Source: Raillietiella orientalis
Taxonomy: Eukaryota
Direction: 5' to 3'
DNA: 42,491 nt
Assembly: GCA_036172245.1 (NCBI GenBank)
Contig: JAYWIR010000120.1
Coordinates: forward strand, 62,001 to 104,491
Positions 3,536-41,244 of the stretch are shown here, in pieces. A model generated the notes under the pieces. The model did no database searches. It saw only the letters and a program-made list of their open reading frames with translations, and had not been told where the DNA came from. Within the stretch, counting starts at the first letter, position 1. Each line of letters starts with the position of its first letter. The translations under genes and the position numbers were made by a program.

Positions 3536-3629
3536 TTCTGCCTTCCAACGGCCGCACTTGCAATCCACACAACACCTACTTTTGGCTTCGCTCACGGGAG
3601 CTGACCAAAAACGCGTGCGGCACCGGCGC

Positions 3630-4290
3630 AGTTCTGCCGCATTCTGCGGGATTTTTATTCCTCCCTTTACGCGCTGAGACCACCAGAGCGCTCCTCTGCG
3701 CAGCGCCTGCTGCCAGAGGGTGCTCCCGCGTTAAGGGAGGAAGAAATAAACATATTCCTCCAAGAATTCTCGACGGCGGAGATAATCTCCGCTATCACTA
3801 AAATGAAAAAGAACAAAGCACCACGGGAAGACGGCCTGCCAGCTGAATTCTACCAACACTTCGCAGCAGAGCTGGCCCCCCTGGTGCTAAAACTACGTAT
3901 GCTGATCCGTGAACGTGGGGATGTCCCCAACTCGTTCCGGTCAGCTAGAGTACGTCTCCTTCCTAAGGGAGGAGACTTGCGCAACGTTGGCAACTGGCGT
4001 CCCATTACTGTAGTGAATGCGGACGCAAAGTTGCTCGCCAAACTGTGAGCTGAGCGCCTGGCACGGGTTGCGGACTTCGTGGTCAGTCCGGAACAGACAT
4101 ACGCTGTTCCCGGACATACCTTGGAGGCCAACCTGTTCCTCGCCAGCACATTCTGGCAGTTGCAACAACGCGAGGCGCAGCTACGTCGGGAAGGTCCTGG
4201 ACTCTCTATTGATAGGAGGGAGGGAAGCCGGGAAGAAGATGCGGTGCCTGGAGCCCTTGCGGTCACAGACGATTTGCGTAAAGCTTTCGA
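3630..4290 (+). mobile_element. A' host fragment: A-family ORF2 linker/RT (QxCRIL...DLRKAFD)
   Basis: Near-identical inverted copy of about 196-855; bounded by the A 5' end and the B1 3' end. Confidence 0.9.
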
Positions 4291-4508
4291 TTTTCACCCG
4301 GATTTCCCCGGGGCGTTTATTGGAAAATAAACTTTTACAAAGACGTGCGGTGGCTGGACCATTGCTCCAGCCACGCACGAAGAAACACAGAGCCTCCCGA
4401 GTCACCGGTTCGCAGATCGGTACGGTCCACCACGGCAGCAGGGGGAAGGGGGAAAAACAAAAAGCAAAACAAAAAAGAAAAGAAAAGTTGGGAGGGTAAG
4501 GGAAGGGA

Positions 4509-7500
4509 TCAAAGTTGCTGGTGGGGCCGTTGCATCCTTTGCAGGATGCCGTTAAGCTCCTTCTGTATTTCTGGATCAAGGTGGGGCCATCGAGACGCCC
4601 TCCTCAGGAACAGGGAGGCTGGCTGGATGGCACCCTGGTCGCGTTGTCCTCCCGTAGCCTTGCACCAAGCGGTGACGATCCCGCGTAGGCAGCACAAAGC
4701 TGCTAACGAGGCCGCTGGCCGAAGGGCGTCGGCAACGAAGAGGGCTTTCAGTGCGTTCCTGGGGTTGCCGCAGGGGATTCCGATGGCCGCGGCAAAGCGA
4801 AACCAAAGGGGCCGAAGGGCAACGCAATCCACTAGCAAGTGGGGGAGGGAATCCCGTTCCCCACACCTGACGCAATTGGGGTCCATCGCTCCCCAGGTCC
4901 AGTGGTGTGGGCGGGCGTTGCAGGGGAGTCCCCAGTGCTGCAACAGGAGAGTCCACTCCTGCCATTTTAAATGGAGGGCGGAAGTGTTCATGAGCACCGG
5001 GGGCCACTTCAGATGTTCAATGGGAACATCGAGCAGCGTGCCCCAGCGCAGAAGTACATTGGGAGGCGTACTCGGGGTCGCTGCGTCTGTTAACTGGCCC
5101 GTCTTCCACTCTCCCTGCTTCTTCTCCTTCCCGGAGATTTTTATTGTAACCTCCCACTTCGCCGCAACATCGCTGTCCTGATGTTTCACTAGGGAGTCCA
5201 GCGCAGCAGCGAGGGGGGTTCTTCCTGACCACGCTCTCTCCTTAGGATCCTCCAGGATCTCGCGGAGCGTGCAACTTCTGTAACCCCCAAACAGGAACCT
5301 TCGTTCCTGTTGGGAGCGTTGCATGCGGAACTGTGCCCACGTTCGAACAATTTCCTGCAACCAGGCACTACCGTTAAACGGGCGTCAGGTGAACAATCCT
5401 GGGATTTTCCGATACAGCGCAGCCACCCTCCGTAGCTGGAGTCCGCATCGGTTGACGCGGCGACGGAGTGCAAGAAACGACGTCACTCCCGTCTTGCCGG
5501 TAGCTTGCTGGAGAAGGAGACGTGCAGGGACGCACCAACAGGTGCACCACAACTCTGGAACGAGTGCCGACAAGCGGAACTGCAGCTAAAGCTCCAGCCG
5601 CTCCAGCGTCAGGAGGCCCAGACCACCATCCCGACGAGGATCTCACAAGTCCTTTAAGCGGACTCGGGCCCTCACTTTGCCCCAAAGGGCGATACGGAGG
5701 AGGTCCTTTGTCCGCTTTTTAATCCTCTCTGTGAGGGGGCAAACAAAAAGCAGGGGCTGGTGGAAAGGAGCCGCGAACGTGTTCAAAACCGCGGCCCGTT
5801 TAGGCAGGAACAACCTGCCGCCTCGGAACGGGCCGATCGCCGTATCTACTTTTTGGAGGAAGCCATACCACGCTTCCGCAGGGGAGTAGTCCCCCAACGG
5901 CACACCAAGGTACTTGAAGTACCTCACCGTGGGGATCCCCAAACGGACCCAGTCCTGCTGCCCTGCCCACGCCGCACCAACTGGCATCACGGACGACTTC
6001 GCCCTGTTCACCGTAAGTCCGGTTCCCCGATGCAGCAGGTCGAAGAACTCCTCGACCGCCGCAGCCCGGGGTGGACATAGAAAGCAGCAGCAGAAGGTCG
6101 TCCGCGTATGCTGAAACGGCCGGCGTACCGACACAGTCGTGCGGCAGGTGCGCCAGAGTTCCCCTGTACGCTCTCAGTACCAACTCAAGGTAGGTACTGA
6201 AGAGCAAGGGACCCAGGCTGCCAACCTGCCGTATCCCACGCCGCACCGGCACGCCGTGCACGGTCTGCCCGCTGAAAGTAACATTGATGAGCGCGTCGCG
6301 CCAGCAAGAGCGCAGATAGGCCACTAATGAGGCCGGGAAGCCCAAGCGTTCTAGAAGCTCCAAAAGGAGATTCTGGTCGACGCAATCGAATGCTTTGCGC
6401 AAGTCGACTGCGACCGCAAGGGCTCTCTCCCCCACTCGACCATCCAACCCCTTGCCGGCGCACGCACCGGAATTCCGGCTGCCCACCAAGCTCCTTTCTT
6501 GTTTGAGCTCTCGCCAGGTGGAAGCGTGGAACAGGTTCGTCTCCATGCTTCGCCCGGGAACAGCATATGTCTGTTCCGGGCTGATGAAGATGTTGACAAC
6601 ACGTCCCAGACGCTCTGCCCAAACCTTAGCCAGCAACTTGGCGTCCGCATTCACTATTGTGATGGGATGCCAGTTGTTCATGCTCCTCAGATCTCCTCCC
6701 TTAGGGAGGAGCCGCACCTTTGGCGAACGAAACGAGGCGGGAACGTCACCTGTTTCGCGTATCAGCAAGGTGAGTTGCTGTACCAAACGGGTAAGCTCAG
6801 CCGCGAAAGTTCGATAAAACTCCGCGGGCAGGCCGTCCTCCCCTGGAGCCTTTCGCCTCTTGAGCTTTCCGATGGCCGAGGGGTTCTCGTCCATCGTGAA
6901 AGGCTCGTCGATGGTCTTTCTCTGCTCCTCCCCGATCGCTGAAGCGCCTTCCGGAAGCAGGAGTCGTGAGACGTTCCTCTCCGGAGGTGCCCTGGCATAC
7001 AGGGAGGAGTAGTAACTCCGCAGCAGGCCGCGGATTTGGGCAGGTGCCGAGTGCTCCTGTCCCTGATCGTCCAGTAAGCTGGCCGATCCGGACTGCCAGG
7101 CTTGCCTCTCGGCTCTTGCTTTGTATTCCGCCAGCTTGCGGATGTCGGGGGTCCTGCCGTAACGACGGGCCTGCAGGTAGGCTCGTTCGTTACGGACCCC
7201 GGTCCCAAAACCCGTGGGTAGGCGGTGCAGAGGAAACTGGTCGCAGAACTCTTGGACCGACCGCTTGAAGCGGTCCCAATCCTGGAGTGTCCGCAGACTG
7301 AAGCTCCGTATGAACGTGCGGAGATGTTCCGCCGCGTCCGTGAGCTTCAGCCAGTCCCCTGGGAGACGCAACGCTGACGAGGGGGGGCCTCTGTCGCGCG
7401 GATGGATCTCGAGGACTAGCGGGCGATGGTCGGACAGCTCGCACGGAAACTTGCCGCGCGTGCCCACGCGAGGGCACAGGTGCTCGTCAAGAAACACGTG

Positions 7501-8091
7501 GTCAATGATGTCTTCCATCCCCGGTGCACTGGCGAACAAATTACAGGTGTGCACCGCCATGCACACCTCGTTGACCAGGTCACGCTCGACATTCTGCTCA
7601 TCTGGTTTCAGGCGAAGGTTGAAATCGCCTGCAACCAGATGGGCATTCCGCACGCCTGCTTTGGTCAGCCAGTCTCGCCGGAGGGCAAGGAAAAACTCTT
7701 TCCTCGTCCTCCTGTTCATCAGGTCCTTGCCGCTCAGTGCGTACACTTTCGTGACGATCAGATCGATCGAGTCGGACGACCTGAGAGTCAGCTGGCCGAC
7801 ACGACCGTGATCGTCGAACCGCACGCCCCGAGTTGCGGCCTCGACGGCTGGCCGAAGCAGCTAGGCGACACCGCAACTTTTCGCTCTCCCACACCTGTAC
7901 CGTAGCCGCTCTCCGGAGAACCGTTTGATTTCTCGCGCTTGTTCTACAGAGATCACGTGGATCTCCTGCAGCAGCGCAAGGTCGTAGGATTCCAGAAGGG
8001 CGGCCATGTCTCGTCTCCTGCCGGCGTCTGTCATGCCGTTCACGTTCCAAACGGCGATGCGCAGACGACGGCAGGAGGAGATTCCCGGCAT
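4509..8091 (-). pseudogene. B1 ORF2 (APE-RT-Cys/His finger), frameshifted
   Basis: WNVNG, LLQE, GDFN, DHVF, SDH, KAPGEDG, DLRKAFD, YADD, FKYLG, CVRCGERDSLPHLLVDC. Confidence 0.93.
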
Positions 8092-9766
8092 TACTGCTAG
8101 GAAGATTAAGGTGTGGGGGAGCCCTACTCTTGCGAGGCGGGCGGGATGTCCATGGGGGTTTCGGCCTTCTCAGGCACCTGAGGCACCTGTTCGGCCTCCA
8201 TCCCCTCCATCCCCTCCGTGTCCGTGCGTGGGAGTCTCTCGGGCGACGGGTCTTATGAGTTTCCCACGCTCATGGCACCCCCGCTTGCGGAAGCCATCTC
8301 TTCCCCTTCGACGTGGGAGACGAGCTTCCTTGGCTTTGTGGACTTACGTCCAGCCTTCTTGAGCGGTGCCGTGGAAACGGAGGCTGCGCTTCCGGCCTCC
8401 ACCTCGGGGTCGGAAGTGGGGGAATCCTGAGGAGAGGCCGGACGCCTTAAGGCCTTCTTGCCAGCCTGGGAGGGTTCTGGCTGCAACGAGGCTGCCAGCT
8501 CCTCCGCGGCTCGCGCGAAGGCTACGTCATCGATGTTGGTGTCGTTGACGGACGCCGCCGCCGGCTCGCTCCCCTCGCTGTTGACAGTGTCAACAGAGGG
8601 GAGGTCATCGGTAGCGGCGAGTTCTTTCCGGCAGCGTTCGGCAACATGAAGAACGCGTTCGACAACGACCCTGCACTCTGTAATAATCGCGCTACCCTGC
8701 TCTTTCTTCTTCTGTTGGTAGGCGATTTTCTTTTCCATCCTCCTCTCCTTTTTGATTTTTTGGCCGTTGCCACTTGCCACCCAGTCTCCTGGCCTGCTAC
8801 CTCAACTTTTTCGGCGTTCGTCGCCGGGGTCTCGGGTGCGGCCTGGGTTTTGGGCGCGGGTAGCACAGCCTTCGCGGCAGCTTCCGCCGCCAGCGTTTTC
8901 TGCAGAAGCCGGGCGCGTTTTTTAAGGTTTCTCTTGGAAACCACCCGCACTGCTGCTTTTGGTCACACGTCCCTCGTGTGGCCCATTGTGCCGCATACTT
9001 GGCACTGCACATTGGGACACCTCTTTTTGAGGTGGCCCGACGTATTGCAGAAGCCACAGTATTTCGGCTTCCTTACATACCAGAGGTCGACGGTTTCGCC
9101 TTCGACCACCAGTTTGTGGGGAAGAGTGCAGCCCTCCCGAACGGTCACGCGCGCAGCAGTTAGGCCGTGTTGCAGCCTTGTGTAGTCCTCGAAAGGACTT
9201 ACTTTCGTCCACTGCGCGTGGACCGTTCCGAACTGTTCCAAAGCGGCGCGAACCTGTTCTTTGCGCATTCGCGCGGTGACGCCTAACAGGTGGACCACCA
9301 TGCTGCGGTGCGCCGTAGTGGGGAGGAGCCTGCGCGTCCCCATCACAATGGGGGTTTTAAGCAGTCGTTGGGCCAGCTCTGCATTTTTGCAGATGACCTC
9401 AACGTACTGACCCCCGCTGCGGATGGTCATAGCGCTGAGCTCCTCCTCTTTCACATCGAGAGCGCGCATGCCCTTCGAGAAAGCGCGCGCGCTCTCTAAA
9501 GAATATAAATTGCCGACCTTGTAGAACAATGATGGGTTGCACCCCTCCTCTACATAGGCCGAGAATTCCGCCGCGGCTGCAGGCGATGGCGCCGACACAA
9601 CGGCGCTCCACGCTTGCGCTGCAGCGGGGACCGATTCTGTGGGGGCGGATGCCCCCACCTCCATCGCCTCTGGGGGCGACGTTGCCGCCGCTTCCTGTCT
9701 CTCCATCGCCTCTGGGGGCCGCGTTGCCGCTGCCCCCTGGCCATCCTTGGTGGTCGCGTCAGACAT
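8091..9766 (-). pseudogene. B1 ORF1, frameshifted
   Basis: CGFCNTSGHLKKRC and CQVCGTMGHTR..; TAATG junction at 8093-8089. Confidence 0.88.
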
Positions 9767-9860
9767 CGCTGCCTGATCGACCACCGAACCACACGACGCT
9801 TGCACTGGGGGAGACTTCCTGGCACGAGGAGCACCGAGAAAACTCGTTCATCCTGGAGCG

Positions 9861-11978
9861 CACAAGGCATTCGACTTTATAGACCAGGAACTCCTCTTGG
9901 AGCTCCTGGGTCGCATGGGCTTCCCACCCTCCCTGATTTCCTACCTGCGCTCTTGCTGGCTGAATGCGATGATTGCTGTCTCTATCAGCGGTCACAAGGT
10001 GTATGGCGTGCCGGTGCGGCGGGGCATAAGGCAGGGAGATAGCCTCAGCCCCCTGCTCTTCAGCACCTACTTTGAGTTGGTGCTGAGAGCGTATAAGGTG
10101 AGTTTGGCTCCCTTGCCCAGCTCGTGTCCCGGCACGCCTGCCGTAGCAGCGTACGCCGACGATCTTCTGCTCTTGTTGCCAATGTCCACCCCGGCAAAGG
10201 CTGTCGGGGACTTCTTCGATCTGCTCAGTCGCGGGACCGGACTGCAGATCAACAGGGCTAAGTCGTCGGTGGTGCCAATAGGTGCGGCGTGGGCATGGCA
10301 GCAGGACTGGGTCCGTCTGGGGATCCCCATGGCGACGTGCTTCAAGTACCTTGGTTTGCCGTTGGTGGACTACTATCCTGCGAAAGCGTGGTCCAGCTGC
10401 CTTCAAAAAGTCGAGACGGCGATTGGCCCGTTCCTGGAATGCAAGTTTCACTTGCCCGAACGGGCCGCGGTTTGGAACACCTTCGAGGCCCCCATCCTCC
10501 GCCCCTTGCTTTTTGTTTGCCCCCCAACCGTAGAATCGAAGAAGAGGACAAACAAAATCCTCCTCCGTATCGCCCTTTGGGGTAAGGGGAGTCCATGAGT
10601 CCCTCTGAAGGAGTTGAGTGCTCCGCGTCCGGACGGCGGTCTTAGCCTCCCGACGCTGGAGCACGTGGAGAAGCAGCTGCGGTGGCGAACCCTCGCCATC
10701 GCAGCGAAGATGTGGAGCACCCCTTGGTGCACTCCGGCCCGCCTCCTGGCCAGCCGTGTGTCCCGGTGCGATGGACTCGCGTCTTTTCTTCTGAGCCGTC
10801 GCTGGAAGATGCGAAGATGCGGCCTACTGCTAGGGCGCATGGCAACATTTTCCAAGGAGAACAGCTGGATGGTTTGCTGCCCCGCCAACTCCCCCGCCTG
10901 GCTGGAGGAGAACATCGGAACGTGGGCAGTGGTGTACCAGAGGAGCCACGAAACGTGGAATCGTCTCCGATGCAGCCCCTACGCCCGCTGCACGCTGCGT
11001 AATCTCCTGGAGAGTCCAGCAAGATGCACGTGGGCAGAGACGACCTGCCAACTTCGGCGCTGCCCTTCCTGAGGAGGGCACTTTACAGCAGCCGGACGCC
11101 AAGTTGGCAAGTCTCCTGCTGCATTGAGGGACGCGAGAAGTTAAGTAGCGGCTGGACAACAGGAGAACTGGCCGACTCCACGACCCCGAGCGTCCAGCCG
11201 CAAGGATTAGCAGCATGGGGCGAGCTGCTCGCCATCCCCAGGGATGAGCTGAAGTGGCCCCCGGTGATGAAGGAATCCAGGATCCTGCCCCTCAAGTGGC
11301 AAGAGTCGGCGTTGCTTTTGTTGCACTGGGGTCTATCCTGCAACGCGCGCCGCTTCCACTGGACGAGGGGAGCTGTGGATCCTGCGTGTGCCAGGTGCGG
11401 GGAGCGGGAGTCGCTTCCCCACCTCTTAGTTGAATGCTCTGCCGTCCGGATTCTTTGGGATCGTCTTAAAACGGCTTTCGGGATACCGGATGGTGGCAAC
11501 GTAGGATGTGTTTACAGTCTTGTCTTCGTGCATAACGGCGTCAGTCCAGCTGCAGCCCTTGCAACACTTTGCTGCATTCGTGGTATAATGGCAGCTTGGA
11601 GTGATGTCGAAGATGAAGACTGCATCGTGAGGAACGTCATCGAGTATGCTTTTCGCTTTTTACAGAGAGCTACCCGATGGCTTCATCTAGGGAAATTGAA
11701 AATGGAACTAGAAGGCATCCTGCAAAGGATGGGCTCTCCTAGCAGTTTTCTGTGATCCCTTCCCGGCCCTCCAAACTACTTTTTCGTTTGTTTTTCTGTT
11801 TTTATTTTATTTTTGTTTTCTCCCCCATCCCCCTCCACTGCCGAGGAGAGCCACACCGGGTTGCGTCCCGGTGTCCCAGCAGTTCCTCTATTGCGTGGCC
11901 GTCAGTGGTGCCTTGTACCAGGTTCTGTACTGACTGTTGAAATGTTTTTAATAAACGTCCTGGCGTATCCGGGTGGCA
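9861..11978 (+). mobile_element. C: 3' half of a LINE (RT from HKAFD to 3' end)
   Basis: RQGDSLSP, YADD, FKYLG, CARCGERESLPHLLVEC, stop 11755, T-rich 3'UTR, AATAAA 11950. Confidence 0.92.
11950..11978 (+). terminator. 3' terminal signal: AATAAA + hairpin (representative of 7)
   Basis: AATAAACGT-CCTGG-CGTAT-CCGGG-TGGCA. Confidence 0.75.
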
Positions 11979-11988
11979 TCGCCGAAAG

Positions 11989-12230
11989 TCGGTGTGGGAG
12001 GACGTGTTTTTTGGTCGCTTCGTTAGCGCTTGTCTGAGAAGCAACCGGAGTTTTTAGTGTAATCAGGTGTAAAGTTTGGATCGTTGGTGTCCGATGGCAG
12101 CCGTGCCAGATGACACCGCGATGGATGTAGTCGTGTGGGAGGCATGTCCTCCCACACAACCTGTAGCTACGGGGGCAGCAGCCCCTGGACCGTCTGGCGG
12201 CCTCAATGTGGGGTTGCCGACTTTCCCTAC
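11989..12230 (+). mobile_element. F': 5'UTR + ORF1 start fragment related to F
   Basis: GGACGTGTTTT at 12000; ATCGTTGGTGTCCGATGGCAGC shared with 29374-29395; boundaries approximate. Confidence 0.7.
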
Positions 12231-15014
12231 TGGTAACTAGCGAAAATGCTTTGTCGCCTCCGGGTGACTAAGCTAGTCTGCTGGCATCCTCCAAACACAG
12301 TTTGGAGGACCCTTGTTTGGCGGGAGCATCTCGAACTTGAGCCTGTTGTGGTCTGAAAGCACAGACGGCATGGGACCTCTCCGACCCACTCGAGAGAGCA
12401 AGTGTTCATCGAGGAATACATGGTCCGGTGATGTCGCCATAACAGGGTCGTTAGCGAACAAGTTGCACTCGTGCACGGACGCGTCCATCTCTTCCACTTG
12501 CAACTTCTCCCTTTTGTGTGCGCTATTCTCGGTCAGCAGGTGGACGTTAAAGTCCCCCGCAAAAAGATGCGCAACAGTAGGGTGAGAACGAGTAAGCCGC
12601 TGGCTCTGCAGGGTACCGAAAAACTAAATCCTTTCGGCAAATCGTCCAGCACAAATCGGCGGGTACACGTTCGTTACGACAAGGTCGATCGAGTCGGACC
12701 ACTTGAGTACAAGCTGTCCCACACGGCCTTCCGTGTCGGAGCGAACGCCGCGCACCGCTTCCGCCAAATTTCCTCGCACGAGGAAAGCGACGCCGCACCT
12801 GTAATGTAGCTTTCCGCCTGCACGTTATTCGATTTCGGCAGCCTGCTCTTCGGAGATGCTGTGAATCTCCTGCAGGAGCGTCAAGTCGAAGGCACGCAGA
12901 GCGTTAGCTACTAGTCGCCTCTACTCGTCGTCTTGGAGACCGTTGACTTTCCAGCACGCCACGGCAACACGACGAGAAGACGCGATTGCCCTCATCACGG
13001 CTGGGAAATTGAGGCCGTGGTGCTCGCCTCATTCGGCGAGCGGGCAGTAAGCAGCACGACGGGGTGGAGGGCGCGGTCACCACTGGCCTCCACCGTGCTC
13101 CGCGTAATCGAGTGCTCCTCCCCGGGTGCAGAACCTCTGGGTTCCGGGGTGAGCACTCGCCGTTCCTCAGCGAGTGTGTCACGCCTCAGGGCTTCAGCCT
13201 TGCGGGAGCTCGCTCCGGCGCGAGTAATACGTCGTTCAGCGGCGTTATCGGACTCCTTTACGGAGTCTGATGCTTGCGCAAACGAAGTGCGTTTGCATCC
13301 GTCCGATCGCAACGGAATCGTCTTCTCGGCGCTCACAGAGGCGGACTTGCAAGCGTTGACGGCGCTGGCTTTTTCCTGGGCAGAAGAATCCTCCGCGCGT
13401 GTTTTCTTGTTCAAGCGGCTGTTCTTCGCCCTCCAAGAGCTCGCAGATGGAGGTTGCGAAGTCTTCTTGGGAGATTTTTTTTTCTCCTCTCCACAACCTT
13501 GCATTCTTCGTCACGATTTTCGGACGCTTCCGCGACTTTCGTCCCGGAAACCTCCGGAGTTTTCTCTGTTGCCTCTAGGGGCGTTGCTTTCGCTACGCCT
13601 TTAAAGGGAGGCACTGAAGTCACCTTCTTGGAAGTCGGGAGATTGCTCCTCTCTTGCCTAGTCGGTGAAAGGGCGGCTGCATGCAGCGTGTTTTTGCGCG
13701 GCGCGCCGCGGCTTGCTACGAGTTTTGTAGCCGCTGCAGAGATCCTTACGTTGGATTCAGGGTTTGCCGGTTTGGGAAGGGATAGCGGGTTGGAGCTGGA
13801 AGTCTTCGCCCTATGGCGATCTTCTTGCTCACCTATCTTTCCTACCGAAGTTCTTCGGATATTTCTCGGTTCCTGGCTTGGAGAGGTGCTTCCAGTACGG
13901 CAGCGAACGCAGGCACGGAACGCGTCTAACCCTCGCGCCCCTTTTCTATTGGCTTCCCTGCCGCGATTTCTCCCTTTTGTGGCGTAGCGGGCTGGTGCGC
14001 CTTTTGTATTGCCGCGTATTGCTTGTCTCTTTTGCCAAGACTCCGCGGACACTGCTTTTTCTTGCGGGCAGCGGCCTTTTGTGCGTTGGTATCTTGAACG
14101 CGACGAACTTCCGCTGCTGCGCTTTTCTTTGCAAGGACCGGGCACTTTTTTATTTCGTGCCCGGTTTCTTTGCAATAGCGGCATTTCCGGATGGGACATT
14201 CCTTTATTCGGTATCCTTCTTGGCCGCACTGCTACCACTCGCGAGTCTGTCCTAGAAACCACAGGTGAACGACCGTGCCGTTCACCTGCAGCTGCTCGGG
14301 CACAACACGCCTGTTCGCGACGGTGATCCGCGAAAACGATTGACCAATGCGGACAGAGGGAAAATCGTTTAGAGGATTTGGCCTCCTCCACAGGGCATGC
14401 ACGGTGGCGAACTTCGCCAGCACACTTACGACATCGCGGATGCAGATTTCCGGCTCGATGTCGCACAATTGGACGACAAACGAGTCGTCCATCACGAAAG
14501 GCAGGACTTCCTTGCCACCGATAGACAACGGAGTACAAAGAAGACGCTGCACAAGTGCCGCGTTTTTACACCGTACCTTGGTGTATTCCATCCTGCCCGC
14601 AGGCATGATGGCAAGGAGCTCCTCCTCCCGAACGCCGATCCGGACGAGCTCATCTTTGAGCTCACGCCCGGACCTCCCGTTAAGGGGCCCACTGACCTTA
14701 TAACGGAGTGCGGGCATGTAGCCGGATGCTACATTAGCCCGCAACTCCGCATCGCAGGGTCCTGTTCCCTGGGAGGTGACGGCGGCGTAGCTCCTCACCA
14801 AAAGCGAGGAAACCGTCACGGAGGATGCGGCCGCTTCCATTCCTATTGAATTGGATTCAACGGCCGTCTCCTCCACACCATTCCCAGAAGTGGCCATGCT
14901 GCACAACGCTGCTTGGTTGACTCCCAAGAAACGCACAAGTGCGAGCGAAAATCACGCACAAAGATGTTCGATCCAGGACGCGGAGAGACGCGAAAACACG
15001 TCTACACTGTGTGA
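12231..15014 (-). mobile_element. G: 5' half of a LINE (ORF1 about 14897-12995; ORF2 APE 12995-about 12231)
   Basis: AGACGTGTTTT 15003-14993; RRM-like ORF1 with decayed knuckles; TGATG junction; LLQE, GDFN, PDHVF, SDH. Confidence 0.88.
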
Positions 15015-15324
15015 GCGCAGGAGATCGAACGGATCTCCGGAGGGCGGCTGTGGTACAGGTGTGGGAGAACGAAAAGTTGCGGTGTCGCCTACCTGCTTCG
15101 GCCAGCCGTCGACGCCGCGGTTTGGGGCTTGCGGTTCGACTATCACGGTAGTGTCGGCCAGCCTACACTCAGGTGGTCCGACTCGATCGGTCTGATCGTC
15201 ACGAACGTGTACGCACCGAGCGGCGCGGACCTGATGAACAGGAGATCGAGGAAAAAGTTTTTCCTTGCACTCCGGCGCGACTTGCTGACCGAAGCAGTGC
15301 TGCAGGCGATTTCAACGTTCGCCT
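15015..15324 (+). mobile_element. B2a: B-family APE fragment (host)
   Basis: AQEIERISGGRLWYR...AGDFNVRL, matching B3 at about 35293-35622; resumes at 26886. Confidence 0.88.
15309..15324 (+). repeat. 16-bp TSD, left copy (ATTTCAACGTTCGCCT)
   Basis: Exact match to 26886-26901. Confidence 0.92.
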
Positions 15325-16698: not shown

Positions 16699-16770
16699 AA
16701 ATTTATTTTTCAAGAATTTTTCTACAAAAACATTCACGCTACAGTCTCATTCATACCATTTGCACTGTTT

Positions 16771-20328: not shown

Positions 20329-20341
20329 AAAAGGGGAAGAC

Positions 20342-26770: not shown

Positions 26771-26788
26771 CCTGGCCTGCGTGCCAGG
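26771..26788 (+). other. 3'UTR RNA hairpin with CUGCGU loop (representative)
   Basis: CCTGGC-CTGCGT-GCCAGG; equivalents with different stems in other lineages. Confidence 0.72.
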
Positions 26789-26885
26789 GGTGAATCTCCG
26801 ATGCATGTTTTCAGAGTTGAGAGCTCGAAACAATTGTTTTCAGCTCGTTTATGTCAATAGACGTCCCAAAGTGACCGGGTGAAAA

Positions 26886-26901
26886 ATTTCAACGTTCGCC
26901 T
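26886..26901 (+). repeat. 16-bp TSD, right copy
   Basis: Exact match to 15309-15324. Confidence 0.92.
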
Positions 26902-31333: not shown

Positions 31334-33415
31334 TTTGTCACCCGGGTGCGCCGAAGCGTTTATTACAAACTATCCGGGAACAGAGTTCCCGGACAAAGGG
31401 GAAAACGAGATACGAAGGAAGTGGGATTCCCGACAGGCAGGTCGATATGCTGAAAGTCCGGAACGGGAGGGATGGGACCACAAATACACTACTATAAAAA
31501 ATAAAAATAAAAATATGGAGGGCAGATGATAGGAGTCTTTGGTGAGTCCGTTCCTTCCTTTCAAAACCGGTGATGGATGCCAGCGATCTCTCTCCTTACG
31601 TCCTGTGGAAGATGGGCCCACTCGGCAGCCGACGACATGCTTGCGCTGGCTAATCCGGTGGGATGACGAACGATGGCCAGCCTCTCCAACTCTCAATGGG
31701 CCTTGTCGATGGCGCGAATGCAACACACGGTTGCAACGACAGCACCCGAAGACTGACGTGAAGAAGCGGCGCATCAATTCCCTCTCGGTGTCCCCCTGGT
31801 GCAAGAGAGCTGAGGCCAGCCTCCGCCAAAGTCTTTGGAGGGCACCGCAGTCCAAAAGCAGGTGCGGGAGCGTTTCCACTTCCCCGCACCGCTTACAGTT
31901 TGGTGAGACGACTCCCCCGGAAACACGGTTCTTCCGCTGGTTGAAGTGACAACCCCAATGCACCAGCATGATGACGTCCTGCTTCCACGAAAGGGAGAAC
32001 ACAGTAGTGTTCAAACAGGAGGGAAGGACCACAAGTTCTTCGGGGGGCTCACGCAAGTGTTCGCTCCATCGAAGGAGTCCCTTCGAGATGTGGCGAGGCG
32101 TGGCGGCGTCTGCCAGCTCGCGAGTCCTCCAGCCGCCAATAGGTCGTGTTGTTCCTGCAATGGTGCAGGCGACCTCCCATCTCGCTGGTTCGCAGCTGTC
32201 ATCTCTTGCCCTGAAGGCTGACAGTGCGTCGGCGAGGGGGGTGAGAGCCAGGCCGGTCCACTTCTCCTGGCTGCTTCAGACCTCATCCACCGTGCAGTAC
32301 GGGGAGAGGTGAACGCAACGGAGTTCCAGGAAAGAAACATCCTGGTGCTTTGCCCAGCCATACAACGGTTCCTGCCGCCAGGCTTGAAAGTTCGTTGGGC
32401 GGCAGAGGATCCATTCCTGGGCTGCCAGGAGCAGGTAGAGGGGTTTCAACGGGAAACCGAAACTTGTCGTGGGGTGCTCCGTGTGCGGACGCAGCGACAG
32501 AAGTCCATCGCTGCCTGTGCAGCGCCGCAGAAGCAGGCGCGCGGGAGCGCACCACGGAGTGGACCAAAGGTTGGCGCACAGGGCCAACATCCGAAGCTGC
32601 ACCTGCAGCTCGATTCTCTATAGCGTCAGGATGCCTAAGCCAGCATCCGGACGCGGAGCCGCCAAGTCTTTCGGGCGGATCTTGGACCTTGCAGGACCCC
32701 ACAGAGCGTTCCTCAACAGGATATGCGCTTGGAGCTTCGCCGAGTAGGAAGGCGGGCAAACATAAAACAGGTGGTGCAAGAGGGGCGCTACGAAGGTGTT
32801 CCATATCGCAACCCGCTCCAACAGGAGGAACCTGCCATGCTGGAACGGGCTCAGCGCACTCGTAGCCTTCCGAAGGCAGTCCGACCACACTTCCACTGGG
32901 CTGATGTTCTCTAGCGGAACTCCCAGATATTAAGTGGACGAAGCGGCCGGGATCCCCAGGCGGATCCAGTCGGACTGCCCCTTCCACGCCGCAGCAATAG
33001 GTACGACCACGCTCTTGCTCCTGTTTACGCTCATTCCGGCTCCCTAACTGATCAGCTCGAAAAAATCCTCGAGACTGGACGCCGGGGTGGTCATGGGTAA
33101 CAGGAGAAGCAGGTCGTCAGCATAGGCCACCACGGAGGGCGTTCCAGAACAAAGGCTCGACAGGTTGGCCAGCGTCAGCCTGTACGCACTCAGCAACAAC
33201 TGAAACAAGATCCTGAAAAGCAACGGGCTTAAACTGTCGCCCTGCCTGATGCCTTGCCGCACCGGCACGCCGTACACGTGGCAGCCGCTGAAAGAGATGG
33301 AAATAAGCGCGTGGCGCCAGCAAGCGCGCAAATACGCCACGAGGTGCACCGAGAGACCGGGGCGCTCCAGCAGCTCCAGCAGGAGATCCTCATTTACGCA
33401 GTGGACCGCCTTTCG
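31334..33415 (-). mobile_element. H: 3' half of a LINE (RT from RKAVH, a decayed KAFD, to 3' end)
   Basis: RQGDSLSP, YADD, CKRCGEVETLPHLLLDC, AATAAA 31364-31359. Confidence 0.9.
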
Positions 33416-36400
33416 TGCTCCAGGGTGGCCGTGTTTTCTCGGTGCTCCTCGTGCCAGGAAGTCTCCCCCAGTGCAAGCCACGTGTGGTTCGGTGATCGAT
33501 CAGCAGCGATGCCTGACGCGACCACCAGGGATGGCCAGGGGGCAACGGAAACGCCGCCCCCAGAGGCGATGGAGATGGGGGCATCCGCCCCCACAGAATC
33601 GGTCCCCGCTGCAGCGCGGGCGTGAAGCACCGTTGTGTCGGCCCCATCGCTTACAGCGGCGGCGGAATTGTCGGGCAATGTAGAGGAGGAATACAACCAC
33701 TCATTGTTCTACAAGGTAGGCAATTTATATTCTTTAGAGTGCGCGCGCGACTTCTCGAAGGGCATGAGCGCTCTCGATGTGAAAGAGGAGGAGCTCAGCG
33801 CTATGACCATCCGCAGCGGGGGTCAGTACGTTGAGGTCATCTGCAAACAAGCAGAGCTGGTTCAACGACTGCTTAAAACCCCCGTGGTGATCAGGACGCG
33901 CAGGTTCCTCCCTATTAAGGCGGACCGCAGCATGATGGTCCACCTGTTAGGTGTTAACGCGCGGATGCGCAAGGAACAGGTTCGCGCCGCGTTGGAAAAA
34001 TACGGAACGGTTCACGCGCAGTGGGAGAAAGTAAATCCCTCCGAGGACTACACGGGGCTGCAACACGACCTCACGCCTGCGCGCGTGACCGTTCGGGAGG
34101 GCTGCACTCTTAACCACAAACTGGTGATCGAAGGCGAAACCGTCGACCTCTGGTATGTGGGGAAGCCGAAATACTGTGGCTTCTGCAATACGTCGAACCA
34201 CCTCAAAAAGAGGTGTCCCAATGTGCAGTGCCAAGTATGCGCCACAATGGGTCACATGAGGGAGGTGTGCCCAAAAGAAGCAGTGCGGATGGTTTCCAAC
34301 AGAAACCTTAAAAAACGTGCCCGGCTACTGCAGAAAAGGCTGGCGGCGAAAGCTGCCGCGAAGGCTGTGCCACCCGCGCTTAAGGCCCAGGCCGCACCCG
34401 AGACCCCGGCGAACAACGCCGAACAAGTCGAAAGAACTAGCCAGGAGCCTGGGTGGCAGGTGGCTACGGCCAAATAATCAAAGAAGGAGAGCAGGATAGA
34501 AAAAAAAATCGCCTACCATAGAAGAAGAAAGAGCAGGGTAACGCGATAATTAAAGAGTGCAGCGTCGTCCTCGAACGCGTTCTCGATGTTGCCGAACGCT
34601 GCCAGAAAGAACTCGCCGCTACCGACGACAAATCCTCTGTTGACTCTGTCAACAGCGAGGGAAGCGAGCCGGCGGCGGCGTCCGTCATCGACACCACCAT
34701 CGATAACGTAGCCTTCGCGAGAGCCGCGTAGGAGCTGGCAGCCTCGTTGCAGCCAGAACCCTCCAAGGCTGGGAAGAAAGCCGTAAGGCATCCTGCCTCC
34801 CCACAGGAATCACCCACTTTCGACCCCGAGGTGGATGCCGGAAGCGCAGCCTCCGTTTCCACGGCAACGCGCAAGAAGGCAGGACGTAAGTCCACAAAGT
34901 CAAGAAAGCTCGTCTCCCCCGTCGAAGGGGAAGAGATGGCTTCCGCAAGCGAGGGTACCATGAGCGTAAGAAACTCTCGGGACCCGTCGCTCGAGAGACT
35001 CCCACGAGCGGACACAAAGAGGATGGAGGAGGTGGAGGCCGAACAGGTGCCTCAGGTGCGTTAGAAAGTCGAAATCCCCGTGGATATCCCGCCCGCCTCG
35101 CAAGAAGCGGGCTTTCCTACACCTTGATCTTCCCAGCAGTAATCCCGGGAATCTCCTTCCGCCGACGTTTGCGCATCGCCGTTGGAACGTGAACGGCATG
35201 ACAGACGCCGGCAAGAGACGAGACATGGCCGCACTTCTGAAGCCCTACGACCTTGCGCTGCTGTAGGAGATCCACGTAATCTTCGCAGAACAAGCGCAAG
35301 AGATCGAACGGATCTCCGGAGAGCGGCTATGGTACAGGTGTGGGAGACCGAAAAGTTGCGGTGTCGCCTTCTTGCTTCGGGAGTCTGTCGAGGCCGCGGC
35401 TCGGGGCACGCGGTTCGAAAATCAAGGTCGTGTCGGCCAGCTGACTCTCACATGGTCCGACTCGATCGATCTGATCGTCACGAAAGTGTGCGCACCGAGC
35501 GGCTCGGACCTGATGACCTGGAGGGCGAGGAAAGAGTTTTTCCTTTTCCTCCGGCGAGACTGGCTGACCGAAGCAGCCGTGAGGAATGCCCATCTGGTTG
35601 CAGGCGATTCCAGCGTTCGCCTGAAACCAGATCGGCAGAATCCCGAGCGTGACCTGGTCAACGAGGTGTGCATGACGGTGCACACCTGTAATTTTTTCGC
35701 CAGTGCACCGGGGATGGTAGACAGCATTGACCACGTGTTTCTTGACGAGCACCTGTGCCCTCGCGTGGGCAGGCGCGGCAAGTTACTGTGCGAGCTTTCC
35801 GACCATCGCCCGCTAGTCCTCGAGATCCATCCCCGCGACAGGGGCCCCACATCGTCAGCCTGGCCTCTCCCAGGGGACTGGCTGGAGCTCCCGGACGCGG
35901 TGGAACATCTCCGCACTTTCATAGGGAGCATCAAGCTTGGGACACTCCAGGAGTCGGACCGCTCCAAGCGGTCGGTCCAGGAGTTCTGCGACCAGTTCCC
36001 TCTGCACCGCCTACCTACGGGTTTTGGGACCGAAGTCCGTAACGAACGAGCCTACCTGCAGGCCCATCGTTGCGTCAGGACCCGCGACATCCGCAGGCTG
36101 GCGGAATACAAAGCGGGAGCAGAGAGGCAAGCTTGGCAGTCCGGATCGGCCAGCTTGCTGGCCGATCAGGGCCAGAAGCACTCGACACCCGCCCAAATGC
36201 GCGGCCTGCTGCGGAGTTACTACTCCTCCATGTATGCCAGGGCACCTCTGGAGAGCAACGTCTCACGACTCTTGCTTCCGGAAGGCGCTCCAGCGATCGG
36301 GAAGGAGGAGAGAAAGACCTTCGACGAGCCATTCACGATGAACGAGATCGTCTCGGCCATCGGAAAGCTCAAGTGTCGCAAGGCCTTAGGGGAGGACGAA

Positions 36401-36713
36401 CTGCCCGCGAAGTTTTACCAAACTTTCGCGGCTGAGCTTACCCCCTGGTATAGCAACTCACCTTGCTGATACGCGAGACAGTTGACGTTTCCTCCTTGTT
36501 TCTTTCGGCAAAGGTGTTGCTGCTCGCTAAGGGAAGAGATCTGAAGAGCATGCACAACTGGCGTCCTATCACAATAGTGAATGAGGACGCCAAGTTGCTA
36601 GCTAAGGTTTGGGCAGAGAGGTTGGGACGGGTTGCCAACATCTTCATCAGCCCGGAACAGACATATGCTGTTCCCGGGCGAAGCATGGAGGCGAACCTGT
36701 TCCACGCTTCCAC
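33416..36713 (+). mobile_element. B3: B-family 5' part (ORF1 33509-35142; ORF2 35142-36713)
   Basis: Leader TGCTCCAGGGT-GGCCGTGTTTT; collinear with B1; ends at NLFHAST. Confidence 0.92.
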
Positions 36714-36747
36714 CTATGTATCTCCTGCTGCTGCAGGAGATACATAG
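36714..36747. repeat. Perfect 15-bp inverted repeat at the B3/K junction
   Basis: CTATGTATCTCCTGC-tgct-GCAGGAGATACATAG. Confidence 0.9.
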
Positions 36748-37668
36748 CATCTCCGAACGGCAGGCATCGGATCTGGAAGAGCGCGCGGGCGGGACGCTAC
36801 ACTGGCGGCAAGGCTCCGCGCACACGTGCGGAGTCGCGTTCCTCGTCCGAGGCAGGGTGGCGGAGGCGGTGCGCAACGTTTGTTTCGACGAGGAAGGTCG
36901 TGTGGGCCAACTTGTCCTGAAGTGGTCCGAATCGATGGACCTGGTCGTTACGAACATCTACGCGCCGAGCGGCGGCCGGCATCACGCCCAGCGACTTGCA
37001 TTCCTGGGTGGCCTGTGCAGCCGCTGGCTCGCTGACTCGGGCCCTAACGTGGCGCACCTCCTTGCAGGAGACTTCAACGTCCACCTGCTAACAGAGGAGA
37101 GACGCCGCTTGAGGGAGAAGCAACTGGTGAGCGAGGCATGCGCGTCCGTGCGCGTGCAAAACTTGCTTGCTGATGAGCCCGGGATAGAGAGATCGCCGGA
37201 CCATGCGTTCCTCTATGAACACCTGCTCTCACGAGTAGGTCGGAGAGGGCGCCTGCTGTCCGCGATTTCGGATCATCCGAGACTGCAGTTCGAGCTCCTT
37301 CCGCCTGGCAAAGGGCCTCCGATAAATGTCTGGAGGTTGCTGGCCGACTGGCTTAGCAATTCGGAGGCGGCGGAGCATCTTCGCCAACACCTCGGGGGCT
37401 TTGCAATCCGTGAACTAGAGGACTGGGACGATCTCAAAAGATCGGTCCGCGAGTTCTGCAGCCGATTCCCCTTGCACCTGCTTCCCCGCGGCTTCGGAAA
37501 GGGTGTCGCGAACAGCAGATCCTATCTGTAAACACGTACCTTCTCCCGATGCCCGGACGTCCGGCGTCTGGCGGAGTACAAGGCCAGGGATGAGCGCCAG
37601 GTTTGGCAGTCTTGAGCGGCTTGTCTGCTCGATGACGCTGGCCAGGAATGCTCGGCTGCAGCCGAAGT
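36724..37668 (+). mobile_element. K part 1: 5'-truncated ORF2 (APE + linker), D/G-like
   Basis: LLLQEIH, NIYAP, GDFN, PDHAF, SDH...ECSAAAEV. Confidence 0.88.
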
Positions 37669-38840
37669 TTGTCACCCGCATATGCCGGGGCATTTATTAT
37701 TCTATTTTTTTATAAAAATTAGATAATAAAGTCTTGAGAAAAATGTTTTCTGTGGGGGAACACTGGGTTCTCCCACCTTGCTCGACGTGTCGGTTGCCGG
37801 TGCATAGACCGGTTAGGTCCATTCCCAAGGCGCATGGGAGGAGAAAACTGGAACAAAAACAAACAAAAAAAGAGATAACGGGTTGGGAAACAGTTATATG
37901 GGGAGAGGGGGGGGGCAGGGAAGGGATCACTGGGCGCCTGGGTCGGTCCTCCGCATCCTGTTAAGGATGCAGTCAAGTTCGGTTTTTATTGTGAAAGGTA
38001 GACGCCACCTTGTCGCTGTCTCTAAAGAGATCGTCGTTTAGTGGATGGCGTCCCTGCATCTTGGGCCTCTTCTTCTGGCGTGCCACCTTTGCACAATGCC
38101 GCGCACGCAGCAGAGGACTGCTAGAGACGCAGCGGGGCGCAGGCCGTCACTCAGAAAGAGGCGACGGTAAATTTCCTTAGGGTCGCCTACTGGAAGATGG
38201 AGGATTGGGGAGATTGGACTCCAGAGTCCATCCAGGGCGACCCACTCGAGGGTGAGTTGCGGGAAGGTTTCTCTTTCTCCGCACTCGACACAGCGGGCAT
38301 CCACATTCCCCAGTGTCCAGTGAGACAGGCGTGCTCTGCTTAACAGTCCCCAGTGCAGAAATAGCAACGTTGTCTCCTGGCACTCCAACGGGAGTGTGCC
38401 GCAATCCCAACACGCTGGGGGCCACTTCACCTTCTCCGGAGGTATTGCGAGCAGCTCTCCTCAGCGCGCAAGTCCGTGAGGCGGGACGCTCGGGGAGGCA
38501 GCGTCCGTGAGCTCCCGAGTCGTCCACACCTTTAAAGGTTTTTTCCTGCATCGGATGAGGCAAGACACTTCCCACGATGCCCGCTCGTTGCTGCTCCTAA
38601 TGTTTTTTAGGGAGGACAGAACGGGGCAAGGGGGCTGAAAGAAGCCCACAGAAGCTTCCGGGGCGTGTTGATAATATCCTGCAGCGGCTGTCGAGCCTAC
38701 GGTCCTCGTCGTAGGCAGTTGTATTCCGCCTCGCTCGTGCCGTTGATCTTAGCCCACGCGGAAGCTGACTCCTGAAGCCAGGCAGTGCAGTTCGCGGGGA
38801 GGCAGGAGATCCAGGTATTCTCCCTCATCAGGGCGATCAT
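37669..38840 (-). mobile_element. I: 5'-truncated LINE 3' end (about 1.17 kb) inserted in K
   Basis: KWPP..LFLHWG..CVECGERET; AATAAA 37698-37693 + hairpin. Confidence 0.87.
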
Positions 38841-39128
38841 CTGGCGCAAAGTACACCGCGTAGTCAAGCGCTACTACTCCTCGTTGTACGCGGAGGAGCC
38901 CACGGAACGCAGTCTCTCCAAGCTGCTTCTTTCGACGGGCAACCCTGCTATCGAGGAGGAGGAACGCGCCAGATTGGATTGGCCCTTCACGGCGGAAGAA
39001 GTGTCTTCCGCCATAGCGGGCCTGAAGAGGCGTAAGGCGCCTAGGGAAAATGGCCTGACCGCGGAGTTCTTTCACTGCTTCGCGGCGGAGCTCGTCCCCC
39101 TGGTGCTAAGCCTTTCCTTGCAGATGCG
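38841..39128 (+). mobile_element. K part 2: linker/RT start (KVHRVVKRYYSSLY...LQMR)
   Basis: Resumes the frame interrupted at 37668; KAPRENG. Confidence 0.82.
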
Positions 39129-41244
39129 TTTTGAACTCGGTTGCGCCGGGACGTTTATTTGTAAAAGCGAACCACAATCTTCAAGGCAAATTCATCCTTT
39201 CGAGACACAAGAAACGCCCATACAGTAAGTTCAGTTCAGAAAGATCACCGGCACGCAGGGTGCCTTCCAAAAGAAAGGAACGGAAGGAGAGGGATGCAGA
39301 ATAAACAAAACATAAGGGAGCAAACAAAAAAAAACAGTGAAGGGTGGGGTCAGGGATCTTTGGTAGCAAACGTTCCTAATCTTTCTAGAAGCGCTGTTTG
39401 ACAATGGCGACTTCCCTGGAGACTTTTCTGGGCAGATGAGGCCACCTGACAGCTGTTTCATAAGGTTCGCAGCGATTCTGGCGGCGTCCGTTCGCTGCGA
39501 GCTTCCTTTAAATTTACGGCGGGCGATCACGATGGCGCGGATGCAAGAGATTGTTGCGATAACAGCGCCTTTATCCAGTCCGACTTTGCTGAAGAAGCGT
39601 CGAAGCAGGTCTGTGCCAGTGTCCTGAAAACGACGTAGTGACTAAGCAAGTCTCCGCTATACTCCCTCAAGTCACTTCACTCAAGGAGCAGGTGCGTAAG
39701 CGATTCTATCGCCCCGCACCTGAGGCAGTTCGGGGAGACGACTCCCCCTGTAACCAAGTTTCTGCGCTTATTGAACTGGAATCCCCAGTGCAGAAAAAGA
39801 AGAACATCCTGTTTCCATCGAAGCGGGAACACGGAGCTGTCCACACACAAGGAAGGGACCACGAGATCTTCGAGGAGTAATCCAAGAAACTCACTCCAAC
39901 GAAGAAGTCCCTTTGCCAGGTAACGAGGAGTGGCAGCGTCTACCAACACGCTCGTTCTGCAGCCGCTCAGCAGTCTTCTCACTCCTGCAATGCTGCAGAA
40001 GAGCTTCCACCTTGCCGGTTGGCTACTGTCGTTGTTTGCCCTGAGAGCAGACAGCGCTGCGGCGATGGGTGAGACGACTATCCAGGACCAAAGCGACCAG
40101 TCCTGTACGATCACTCCTAGCGGTTCGCGTAAGAGGCCCTGTAAGGGTCGCAGTTGCTCTGGGCGTACATCCAAAGTTGACGTCCAGTGCTCCAGAGCTT
40201 CCTGCTGCCAAGCATTCCAATTGGAGGGGCGGCAGGAAATCCAGGCATGGGCTAACAGCAACGAGGACAAATGCCTCAGCGGGTAGCCAAATCCAGTTCT
40301 CCGGCGAAGGTTGGGCGGCAGCAACGAAAGCAATCCTGCACTGCCGACACATCGCTGGAGAATATGACGAGCCGGAGCACACCAGTGACTAAACTACAAT
40401 TTCCCACATAGGGATAGAAGCCGGAACTGCACTTGCAGTCCAATCTTCTGGATGCTCAGGATGCTCAGATCTGCGTCCTGGCATGGCGCCACCAAATCCT
40501 TAAGGCGAACCCTGGATCGCGCAGCGCCCCACAAGACCTTACGTAGCAGACGCTGCGCCCGGAGTTTAACCACATAGGGAGACAAGCAAACAAAAAATAA
40601 GGGGTGGAGGAGAGGGGCAAGGAAAGTGTTCCATATGCACGCCCTTTCCGGAAAGACGAACTTGCCTTCCAGGAACGTGCCTAGAGCCATCTCTGCTTTT
40701 GAAGACGGGCCGACCACGATTCAGACGAGCAGAAGTCGCCCAACGGTACGCCAAGGTACTTGAAGTACCTGACCGTGGAAATCCCCAGACGGATCCAGTC
40801 GGCCTGTCCCTCCCACGACGCTCCCACCGGCACGACGGAGCACTTCGCCCTGTTAACGCTCATGCCCGCTCCACGACGGATCAGCTCGAAGAAGTCTTGG
40901 ACCGAGTCCGGCGGAGTAGACATGGGCAACAGAAGCAGAAGGTCGTCGGCGTATGCTGCCGCGGACGGAGTGCACGGAGAGGCGCTGGGCAGGATGGCCA
41001 GCGTCAGCCTGTACGCTTTTAGCGCCAACTCAAAGTAGATGCTGAAGAGCAACGGGCCTAAGCTGTCGCCCTGTCTGATGCCGCTGCGCACGGCCACTCC
41101 GTACACACGGCAGCCACTGAAATACAAGTTGATAATCGCGTGGCGTCAGCAAAAGCGCAAGCACAGGAGAAGATGATTCGGAAGCCCATAACGCTCCAGG
41201 AGCTCCAAGAGGATTTTCTGGTTTACGCAGTCGAATGCTTTGTG
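39129..41244 (-). mobile_element. E: 3' half of a LINE (RT from HKAFD to 3' end)
   Basis: RQGDSLGP, YADD, FKYLG, CLRCGAIESLTHLLLE, AATAAA 39159-39154. Confidence 0.9.

Follow-up and report, generated by a model that had tools for sequence, protein, structure and literature searches.

A probable site-specific LINE targeting the reverse transcriptase gene of other LINEs within a nested cluster from Raillietiella orientalis

A 42,491-bp stretch of the Raillietiella orientalis assembly (NCBI GenBank GCA_036172245.1, contig JAYWIR010000120.1, positions 62,001 to 104,491 of the forward strand), hereafter the window, is a cluster of long interspersed nuclear elements (LINEs) nested within one another. 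The junctions between these elements make it quite probable that one family, designated B, is a site-specific LINE that targets the reverse transcriptase (RT) gene of other LINEs, inserting antisense at the (R/H)KAFD codons of RT motif A. The picture as a whole, an L1-type nested cluster in which B is site specific, a second site is probable, and the other junctions are single insertions, strikes us as likely.

Family B at the KAFD codons

Four B junctions (4291/4292, ~9859/9860, ~33416/33417, and ~41245/41246) fall in four victim fragments at the same site and in the same orientation. They belong to three copies of the family: B1 (4292 to 9859, minus strand), which is full length; B2 (33417 to 36717, plus), which runs from its 5' end to position 3347 of B1 (...FHAST); and B3 (41246 to 42491, plus), which corresponds to B1 1-1257 and leaves the window at the right. 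B1 served as the ruler for the whole analysis, and the "coordinates" of victim sequences are B1 coordinates; on this ruler, open reading frame 1 (ORF1) spans 14 to ~1600, ORF2 spans 1692-5349, and the 3' untranslated region (UTR) extends to ~5570.

The first bases of B, GCTCCAGG..., start at 9859(-), 33417(+), and 41246(+); the 5' end sequence is GCTCCAGGGTGGACGTGTTTTCTCGG and the 3' end is ...CCGGGTGAAA. Preceding the three 5' ends are the antisense codons H-K-A-F-D, R-K-A-V-H, and H-K-A-F-D of three different LINEs: V1d (9860 to 11981, plus), from another family than B; H, also termed V2 (31334 to 33416, minus), from a further family; and E, also termed V3 (39129 to 41245, minus), from yet another. 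Each of these victims covers B1 3462 to the end, extending from its (H)KAFD or, in V2, (R)KAVH codons to its own 3' end. The sole B 3' end in the window, at 4292, adjoins ...CGT AAA GCT TTC GAT (RKAFD) of E2 (3630 to 4291, plus), an ORF2 fragment of an A-family copy covering B1 ~2824-3476.

The three B copies are 89.7-90.1% identical to one another over ~1.2 kb, and B2 matches B1 at 84% identity over 4.1 kb (blastn). The adjoining V parts (~2.1 kb) are 55-63% identical, reaching 70-76% only in the RT core, and the switch from one level of identity to the other is abrupt at the junction. After ~2.1 kb each V part reaches a 3' box of its own, beyond which the flanks differ: U for V1d, F (coordinate 1958) for V2, and J (coordinate 3104) for V3. 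This pattern excludes the duplication of one composite locus. Eight places in the window carry the KAFD position of RT, four of them occupied by B; the position is intact in A, B1, D, and E8. Were 15 breakpoints placed at random, at least 4 of them would fall within 15 nt with p = 9e-5. A site-specific LINE is recognized by insertions that arose independently and share one nucleotide position and one orientation within a defined target. B shows this pattern, and the original prediction that this family makes site-specific use of its relatives' ORF2 is well supported by four junctions in four victims at one codon and in one orientation.

Target-primed reverse transcription is the mechanism behind our reading of the nick. 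The B endonuclease would cut the coding strand of the victim just 3' of the Asp codon of KAFD, and the freed 3'-OH would prime cDNA synthesis on the short A tail of B, so that the junction reads ...AAAGCTTTCGAT/TTTCACCCGG. A cut in the second strand ~15 nt upstream would then yield a 15-bp duplication of the (R/H)KAFD codons, and the inserted copy would usually be full length. The E2/B1 junction, ...TTCGAT/TTTCACCCGG, points to this sequence of a first nick after the KAFD Asp codon, priming on the A tail, and a second cut ~15 nt upstream. Where the junctions lie and how they are oriented, the TSDs, and the independence of the victims are shown by the sequences themselves; from such junctions we infer the nick positions, the order of events, and the residence of specificity in the APE domain.

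Two sequence features near the B site were considered and set aside. Reverse-complemented, the first eight bases of B, GCTCCAGG, give CCTGGAGC ('PGA' codons), an octamer located 25 nt upstream from RKAFD in the RTs of the A family (at 4248-4255 and at ~250 in A) and absent from the RT of B1 itself and from that of D. This match is probably due to chance, and as a general feature upstream of KAFD the octamer was rejected, being restricted to the A family. The palindrome GGAGCTCC was likewise rejected as a general feature, being exact in just 3 of 7 RT sequences (V1d, V3, and A); it is exact in two of the three B victims that carry the stretch.

Evidence weighing against site specificity

A number of observations count against B as a site-specific LINE, the most serious of them concerning B1. 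This is the only B copy to show both junctions, and its flanks mismatch: in the putative 15-nt target site duplication (TSD), no more than 10 of 15 positions agree. E2 is 95.5% identical to A 196-858 over 663 nt in inverted orientation (3628-4290), against an interfamily identity of 65-76% elsewhere, and V1d is 74% identical to A 1-206 (blastn). Because of this disparity in identity to A (95.5% versus 74%) and the 10/15 overlap, E2 and V1d are probably not two halves of one victim, and the mismatched flanks thus require an extra event, either recombination or conversion. Two B copies in the same orientation, one lying in an A-family copy and one in V1, may have recombined, in which case the intervening DNA was deleted and the four junctions represent four independent B events. 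Alternatively, E2 may have been converted by the adjacent, inverted A, with the conversion bounded by heterology at both edges of E2. The inverted repeat formed by A and E2 may itself stem from an A-family element having targeted its own family or from gene conversion at the locus.

The target of B also differs among its victims, with V2 reading AAGGCGGTCCAC, from which it follows that recognition is loose or is located elsewhere. All copies carry frameshifts or stops. The evidence is moreover confined to this window. When positions 3630-12300 were compared at 80% likeness with run X1 (9% of sampled words), the 452 contigs, mostly 250-500 nt in length and spread over all 30 bins, showed no pile-up of ends, and none of them bridged a B junction or an empty site. 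For the families other than B, each of which was seen only once, the niche partitioning that was first proposed is conjectural.

Element boundaries

Fragments were placed by tblastn against the ruler, and their edges were refined by nucleotide and local protein alignment. Two terminal boxes shared across families aided this placement. A 3' box, AATAAACGyCCCGG..CCGGGTGA(c)AAA, is common to seven elements of different families (4292-4321, 11950-11981, 26856-26885, 27881-27910, 31334-31364, 37669-37698, and 39129-39160). It is made up of AATAAA(C/T)G, a possible 5-bp stem (CCCGG/CCGGG), and GTGA(c)AAA with just 1-4 A residues, and it fixes the 3' junctions of B1 (4292), V1d (11981), D (26885), C' (27881), H (31334), I (37669), and E (39129). 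The AATAAA may be no more than a polyadenylation signal ~25 nt before the end. As for a 3' hairpin, the 5-bp stem is possible, and covariation across the 3' boxes of the seven elements was found in none of its five pairs. A possible further 3' box at 12262-12280 was rejected, being the ORF2 of G in antisense.

The 5' box, GGACGTGTTTT(C/T), is common to seven or eight elements, among them B, F, G, D, and U, and lies 0-21 nt from the 5' terminus; A carries the variant GCACGCGTTTTT. It occurs at 9830-9859(-), 33417-33445, 41246-41275, 29301-29315, 14990-15013(-), 15325-15350, 11992-12010, and 3600-3629(-). Such a box, shared across families, may be an initiator or promoter element. E8 has neither the 5' box nor the 3' box.

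Composition of the window and type of element

The tblastn map assigns the whole 42.5 kb, with a GC content of 51-61%, to LINE fragments: ~20 nested fragments of at least 12 lineages that are 55-76% identical to one another. Along its full length and on both strands, Pfam detects APE (PF03372), RT (RVT_1, PF00078), and zf-CCHC domains and a weak zf-RVT-like C-terminal motif. PF03372 followed by PF00078, in that order and on single elements, marks an ORF2 that encodes an APE endonuclease and an RT. Zinc knuckles of the zf-CCHC type are found by Pfam in the ORF1s of D, E8, and F, and a CCHC pair is visible in the ORF1 of B1; an ORF1 of this kind, encoding a nucleic acid-binding protein, may correspond to the "type I" class. 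The best-kept ORF2 piece (5803-7860, minus; 686 amino acids [aa]) lies in B1, and its best match among solved structures (PDB) is human L1 ORF2p (E = 1e-33), compared with 1e-10 for R2 proteins. Given this difference and the LINE domains throughout, the elements of the window are L1-superfamily LINEs, that is, APE-type retrotransposons without long terminal repeats.

The hallmarks of target-primed reverse transcription are present: a defined 3' end followed by 1-4 A residues in seven elements, TSDs for D (16/16) and E8 (11/11), and 5' truncation in I. Nine elements have intact 5' ends, and most elements are antisense to their victim; at the level of the locus, strands are balanced (8 minus, 9 plus). 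The best explanation for the growth of the cluster is target-primed reverse transcription of new copies into older ones.

The nearest database proteins are two metagenome fragments (72-74% identity), in both of which RT is uninterrupted. The next-nearest relatives are L1-like ORFs of animals and charophytes at 34-38% identity (representative protein search, 27,777 matches). A protein search with the ORF2 of B1 returned eight matches, of which only P0001 is close, and a scan of metagenomes with P0001 found seven loci, all distant (22-61% identity over short stretches). A 100-aa peptide across the V1d/B1 junction gave a single match, P0009, which is an uninterrupted RT. No relative of B ORF1 was found in metagenome scans, and ESM Atlas matches were to generic RT/APE clusters. 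The best named database relative, P0010, is a 1,555-aa sea turtle protein that matches RT in five separate stretches; its own gene model may span several LINE fragments.

Distribution, conservation, and orientation of junctions

All nine junctions listed in the original prediction exist, within ~5 nt of where it placed them (element map and junction sequences). For the statistics of breakpoints, we counted 15 junction events, and we repeated the count with B collapsed to one event or with events collapsed to families. The claim that every junction lies in the APE-to-RT part of ORF2 holds for 13 of the 15 events; two or three junctions, that of E8 among them, lie outside it. Those 13 fall within coordinates 1875-3480, an interval chosen post hoc and covering 28% of the window (p = 4e-6); when B counts as a single event, the proportion is 9/11 to 10/12 (p = 1e-4 to 3e-4). 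No junction at all lies in the RT-C-terminal and 3' parts, which total 15.2 kb (eight copies, plus the first ~190 nt in A).

The junctions do not, as had been proposed, concentrate at conserved ORF2 motifs. At 12 sites, the conservation percentile varies between 0.08 and 0.83 (mean, 0.47; median, 0.50), and the best-conserved stretch, the RT core at coordinates 3500-4000, is free of insertions. The KAFD and DAKLL sites stand at the 83rd percentile each, and there the motif claim holds. Similarly, the view that all insertions but D are antisense was right for 12 of the 15 events (p = 0.035) and has to be amended to two or three sense cases rather than one. Counted by family, 8/10 or 8/11 are antisense (p = 0.11-0.23, not significant). 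For a site-specific element, a fixed orientation is a trivial consequence of its site specificity.

These distributions bear on the strongest alternative, one of regional accumulation only, in which LINEs are drawn to, or tolerated in, this part of the chromosome (for example, a centromere-like or heterochromatic "centrophilic" cluster like those of Zepp/ZeppL) and insert there at random, the motif coincidences and antisense excess being small-sample noise compounded by junctions recognized through habit of motif. The window is all LINE, so every new insertion necessarily hits a LINE; the junctions lie off the conservation peaks; the orientation bias is not significant at the level of families; non-B families contribute one junction each; and nested L1-type clusters are known in green algae. 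Random insertion, however, cannot yield four B junctions at one codon of four victims (p = 9e-5), and it leaves unexplained both the crowding of 13 of 15 junctions into 28% of the window (p = 4e-6, post hoc) and the absence of any from 15 kb of 3' parts. We consider regional accumulation unlikely as a full account.

More improbable still is guidance by homology or transcription, in which R-loops form on related copies and the displaced coding strand is nicked and primes synthesis, with no family-specific endonucleases. Antisense insertions of all families would then be concentrated in the transcribed, shared ORF2 region, in keeping with the antisense orientation of 12 of 15 events, the location of 13 of 15 in the APE-to-RT part, and the single pattern across many families. 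On the other hand, the best-conserved RT core (3500-4000) received no insertion, D and probably J are in sense, and the nucleotide-exact recurrence of B argues for sequence recognition. Scarcely credible, finally, is a composite unit or segmental duplication in which V and B were copied as one (for example, B with an antisense RT fragment as a 5' leader) and the junction was inherited: the V/B junction does have the same position in three of three copies, and blastn does initially return a single 4.1-kb match at 84% that covers B together with the beginning of V, but the abrupt switch from B parts 90% alike to V parts 55-63% alike essentially refutes it, as do the 3' box and different flank that each V part reaches (U; F at 1958; J at 3104) and the fact that a LINE unit cannot have the 3' end of another element as its own 5' end.

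A possible second site at codon 275/276

Beyond the KAFD codons, one further position recurs. E2 starts at the second nucleotide of codon 275 of the reference ORF piece, at the 5' junction of A, and J is split by I at codon 275/276; the A 5' junction and the I insertion coincide to ~1 nt. A deletion edge of K (element C) lies at codon 278, three codons from the A/I site. Under a conservative null confined to the APE-RT part, at least 3 of 10 points would fall within 12 nt with p = 0.02. Codon 275/276 was probably hit twice, by A and by I, a coincidence that is suggestive only, and it may mark a second site-specific lineage. Several points weigh against this. The A/I pair alone gives p = 0.08, the two target sequences match at ~8 of 12 nt (a by-eye count), and A and I share no overlapping sequence by which they could be assigned to one family. 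The site lies in the poorly conserved APE-RT linker, at the 24th conservation percentile.

Layout of the cluster

From left to right, the window opens with A (1 to 3629, minus), which is full length at its 5' end (3629), leaves the window at the left, and was placed by the tblastn map (B1 188-3665), Pfam APE/RVT_1 matches, and its 5' box. ORF1 and APE are present in it, RT is represented by its N-terminal half, and the KAFD site near 200 is uninterrupted. E2 follows, its left edge formed by the 5' junction of A (codon 275) and its right edge by the 3' junction of B1 (...RKAFD/). In B1 itself, ORF1 encodes CCHC knuckles, and ORF2 encodes APE, RT, and, near the C terminus, a Cys motif; the copy contains a few frameshifts, and its best PDB match is human L1 ORF2p. 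V1d adjoins the 5' end of B1, and ~10 nt separate its 3' end from the 5' end of the next element in U, a junction that had gone unlisted. U (11982 to 12239, plus) comprises this ~10-nt flank and the first ~250 nt (5' UTR and start of ORF1) of an F-like LINE; it carries the 5' box and is 75% identical to F 29374-29479.

G (12240 to 15013, minus) has an intact 5' end at 15013 and contains ORF1 and APE up to B1 2543, where it breaks. The joints between U and G (12239/12240) and between K and C' (~29130) are not element termini and are best read as deletions. At the former, a 258-bp piece is joined to the middle of the APE of G (coordinate 2543), and as this joint shows, the cluster has been reshaped by deletions too.

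A further B copy, B', has been entered by other elements. Its left part (15014 to 15324, plus; B1 ~1920-2235; 84-86% identity to B1 and B2) starts at AQEIE beside the 5' end of G, and its right part (26886 to 27880, plus; B1 2235-3231; 88-89% identity to B1 and B2) ends at DAKLL. Between them lies D (15325 to 26885, plus), a full-length LINE in sense at GDFNVRL of B'. This is a complete insertion, with a perfect TSD, ATTTCAACGTTCGCCT (16/16, at 15309-15324 and 26886-26901). B was correctly described as both invader and victim, for G, D, and C' all interrupt B', and J interrupts B2. Within D lies an unlisted insertion, E8 (16617 to 22332, minus), a distant LINE with a 659-aa ORF1, APE, and RT. 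It is a complete antisense insertion with the TSD CGAAAGCTGCG (11/11) in the ORF1-ORF2 linker of D, outside the APE-RT part. E8 shares 25-35% aa identity with B and has a GC content of 51-52%, compared with 55-60% elsewhere. Its ORF1 is intact with several CCHC knuckles, its 3' end is different, and its 11-bp TSD is perfect; on these sequence features it is the youngest-looking insert.

C' (27881 to 29130, minus) is the 3' part of element C, from ~B1 4280, and its 3' end adjoins the antisense DAKLL of B'. K (29131 to 29300, minus), an ORF2 piece covering B1 2656-2834, is bounded on its other edge by the 5' junction of F at RNERA. K and C' probably belong to one element, C, from which 1.4 kb has been deleted internally, starting at codon 278. 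F (29301 to 31333, plus) begins at its 5' box and extends to B1 1958 (GGRL), where it is cut by the 3' end of H. A shared site for G and H was considered and rejected, since the two lie ~40 nt apart (coordinates 1920 versus 1958).

H adjoins the 5' end of B2, and at coordinate 3347 the truncated 5' edge of J adjoins B2 in sense, a further unlisted junction. The sequence to the right of 36717 had been taken for the rest of F and is actually this other element, J; the two overlap by ~25 codons in the APE N terminus and are only about half identical there. The left part of J (36718 to 37668, plus; B1 ~1881-2825) ends at ECSAAAEV, and its right part (38848 to 39128, plus; B1 2823-3104) ends at LQMR. 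Between them, antisense at codon 275/276, lies I (37669 to 38847, minus), the 5'-truncated 3' part of a LINE (B1 ~4430 to the end), whose insertion shows a TSD of ~AAGT. E follows and adjoins the 5' end of B3, with which the window closes.

Implications

If B is a site-specific LINE of the kind proposed, the catalytic RT motif of other LINEs would be a new target class for site-specific LINEs and B would offer a clear case of parasitism of transposon on transposon, in which each insertion both gains a harmless site and disables a competitor. It would also provide a mechanism at the level of sequence for the growth of LINE-only clusters, such as proposed algal centromeres, and it points to an APE endonuclease from nature that recognizes a long, defined site. 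A wider reading, which we hold rather doubtful, is a self-sustaining community of at least 12 L1-type lineages, several of which (B, A/I, and perhaps others) each possess an endonuclease for a different ORF2 site. In such a community, LINEs would be each other's safe harbor and parasites at once, and LINE-only chromosomal domains would be built without a targeting signal encoded by the host.

Comparison with known systems

Site-specific LINEs are known to target rRNA genes, small-RNA genes, telomeric and simple repeats, and one DNA transposon: Tx1L enters the Tx1D DNA transposon, and R1, TRAS, and SART enter rDNA or telomeric repeats. Like Tx1- and R1-type APE LINEs, whose specificity lies in the APE endonuclease, B enters a multicopy target at one sequence and in one orientation. 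Unlike Tx1, R1, TRAS, and SART, B targets a protein-coding motif, in the RT of other autonomous LINEs from several families, its own possibly among them. This likeness to Tx1-type systems is functional and does not imply membership of their clade. Among the matches listed in the literature searched, which omits most subscription journals and Repbase reports such that a prior description is possible, we found no LINE said to target the RT gene of another LINE.

The head-to-head arrangement of the window also recalls twin priming, the source of L1 5' inversions, in which a single RNA gives rise to both arms and, in element coordinates, the inverted arm lies upstream of the direct one. As in twin-primed L1 copies, the 3' part of a LINE stands head-to-head with a segment of another LINE, and A/E2 forms a 95% inverted repeat beside a LINE 5' end. 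Twin priming was rejected as the origin of the V/B pairs, the arms of which are of different families, and of the A/E2 pair, in which the inverted arm is overlapped by a "direct" arm that already has its full length.

Transposons that target transposons are known, with Tx1 LINEs inserting into Tx1D and Tourist into Tourist (PMC6719617). For R1Bm, insertion specificity is reported to lie in the endonuclease. The closest parallel to the cluster itself is Zepp/ZeppL of the green algae Chlorella, Coccomyxa, and Chlamydomonas, which is described as forming LINE-only clusters by nested self-insertion, with self-targeting, arrays of 3' ends, and, in Chlamydomonas, a single family (PMC8226300, PMC3446292, PMC9940879). 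Clusters of this type are further characterized by occurring once per chromosome or at centromeres. The window resembles Zepp/ZeppL in being a cluster of nested L1-type LINE copies. Zepp arrays, as described, consist of one family in tandem, mostly as 5'-truncated 3' ends, an organization that the window does not share; in contrast to them, it comprises at least 12 lineages with mostly full-length 5' ends and mostly antisense insertions, its 3' parts are unhit, and the target of B is exact to the codon.

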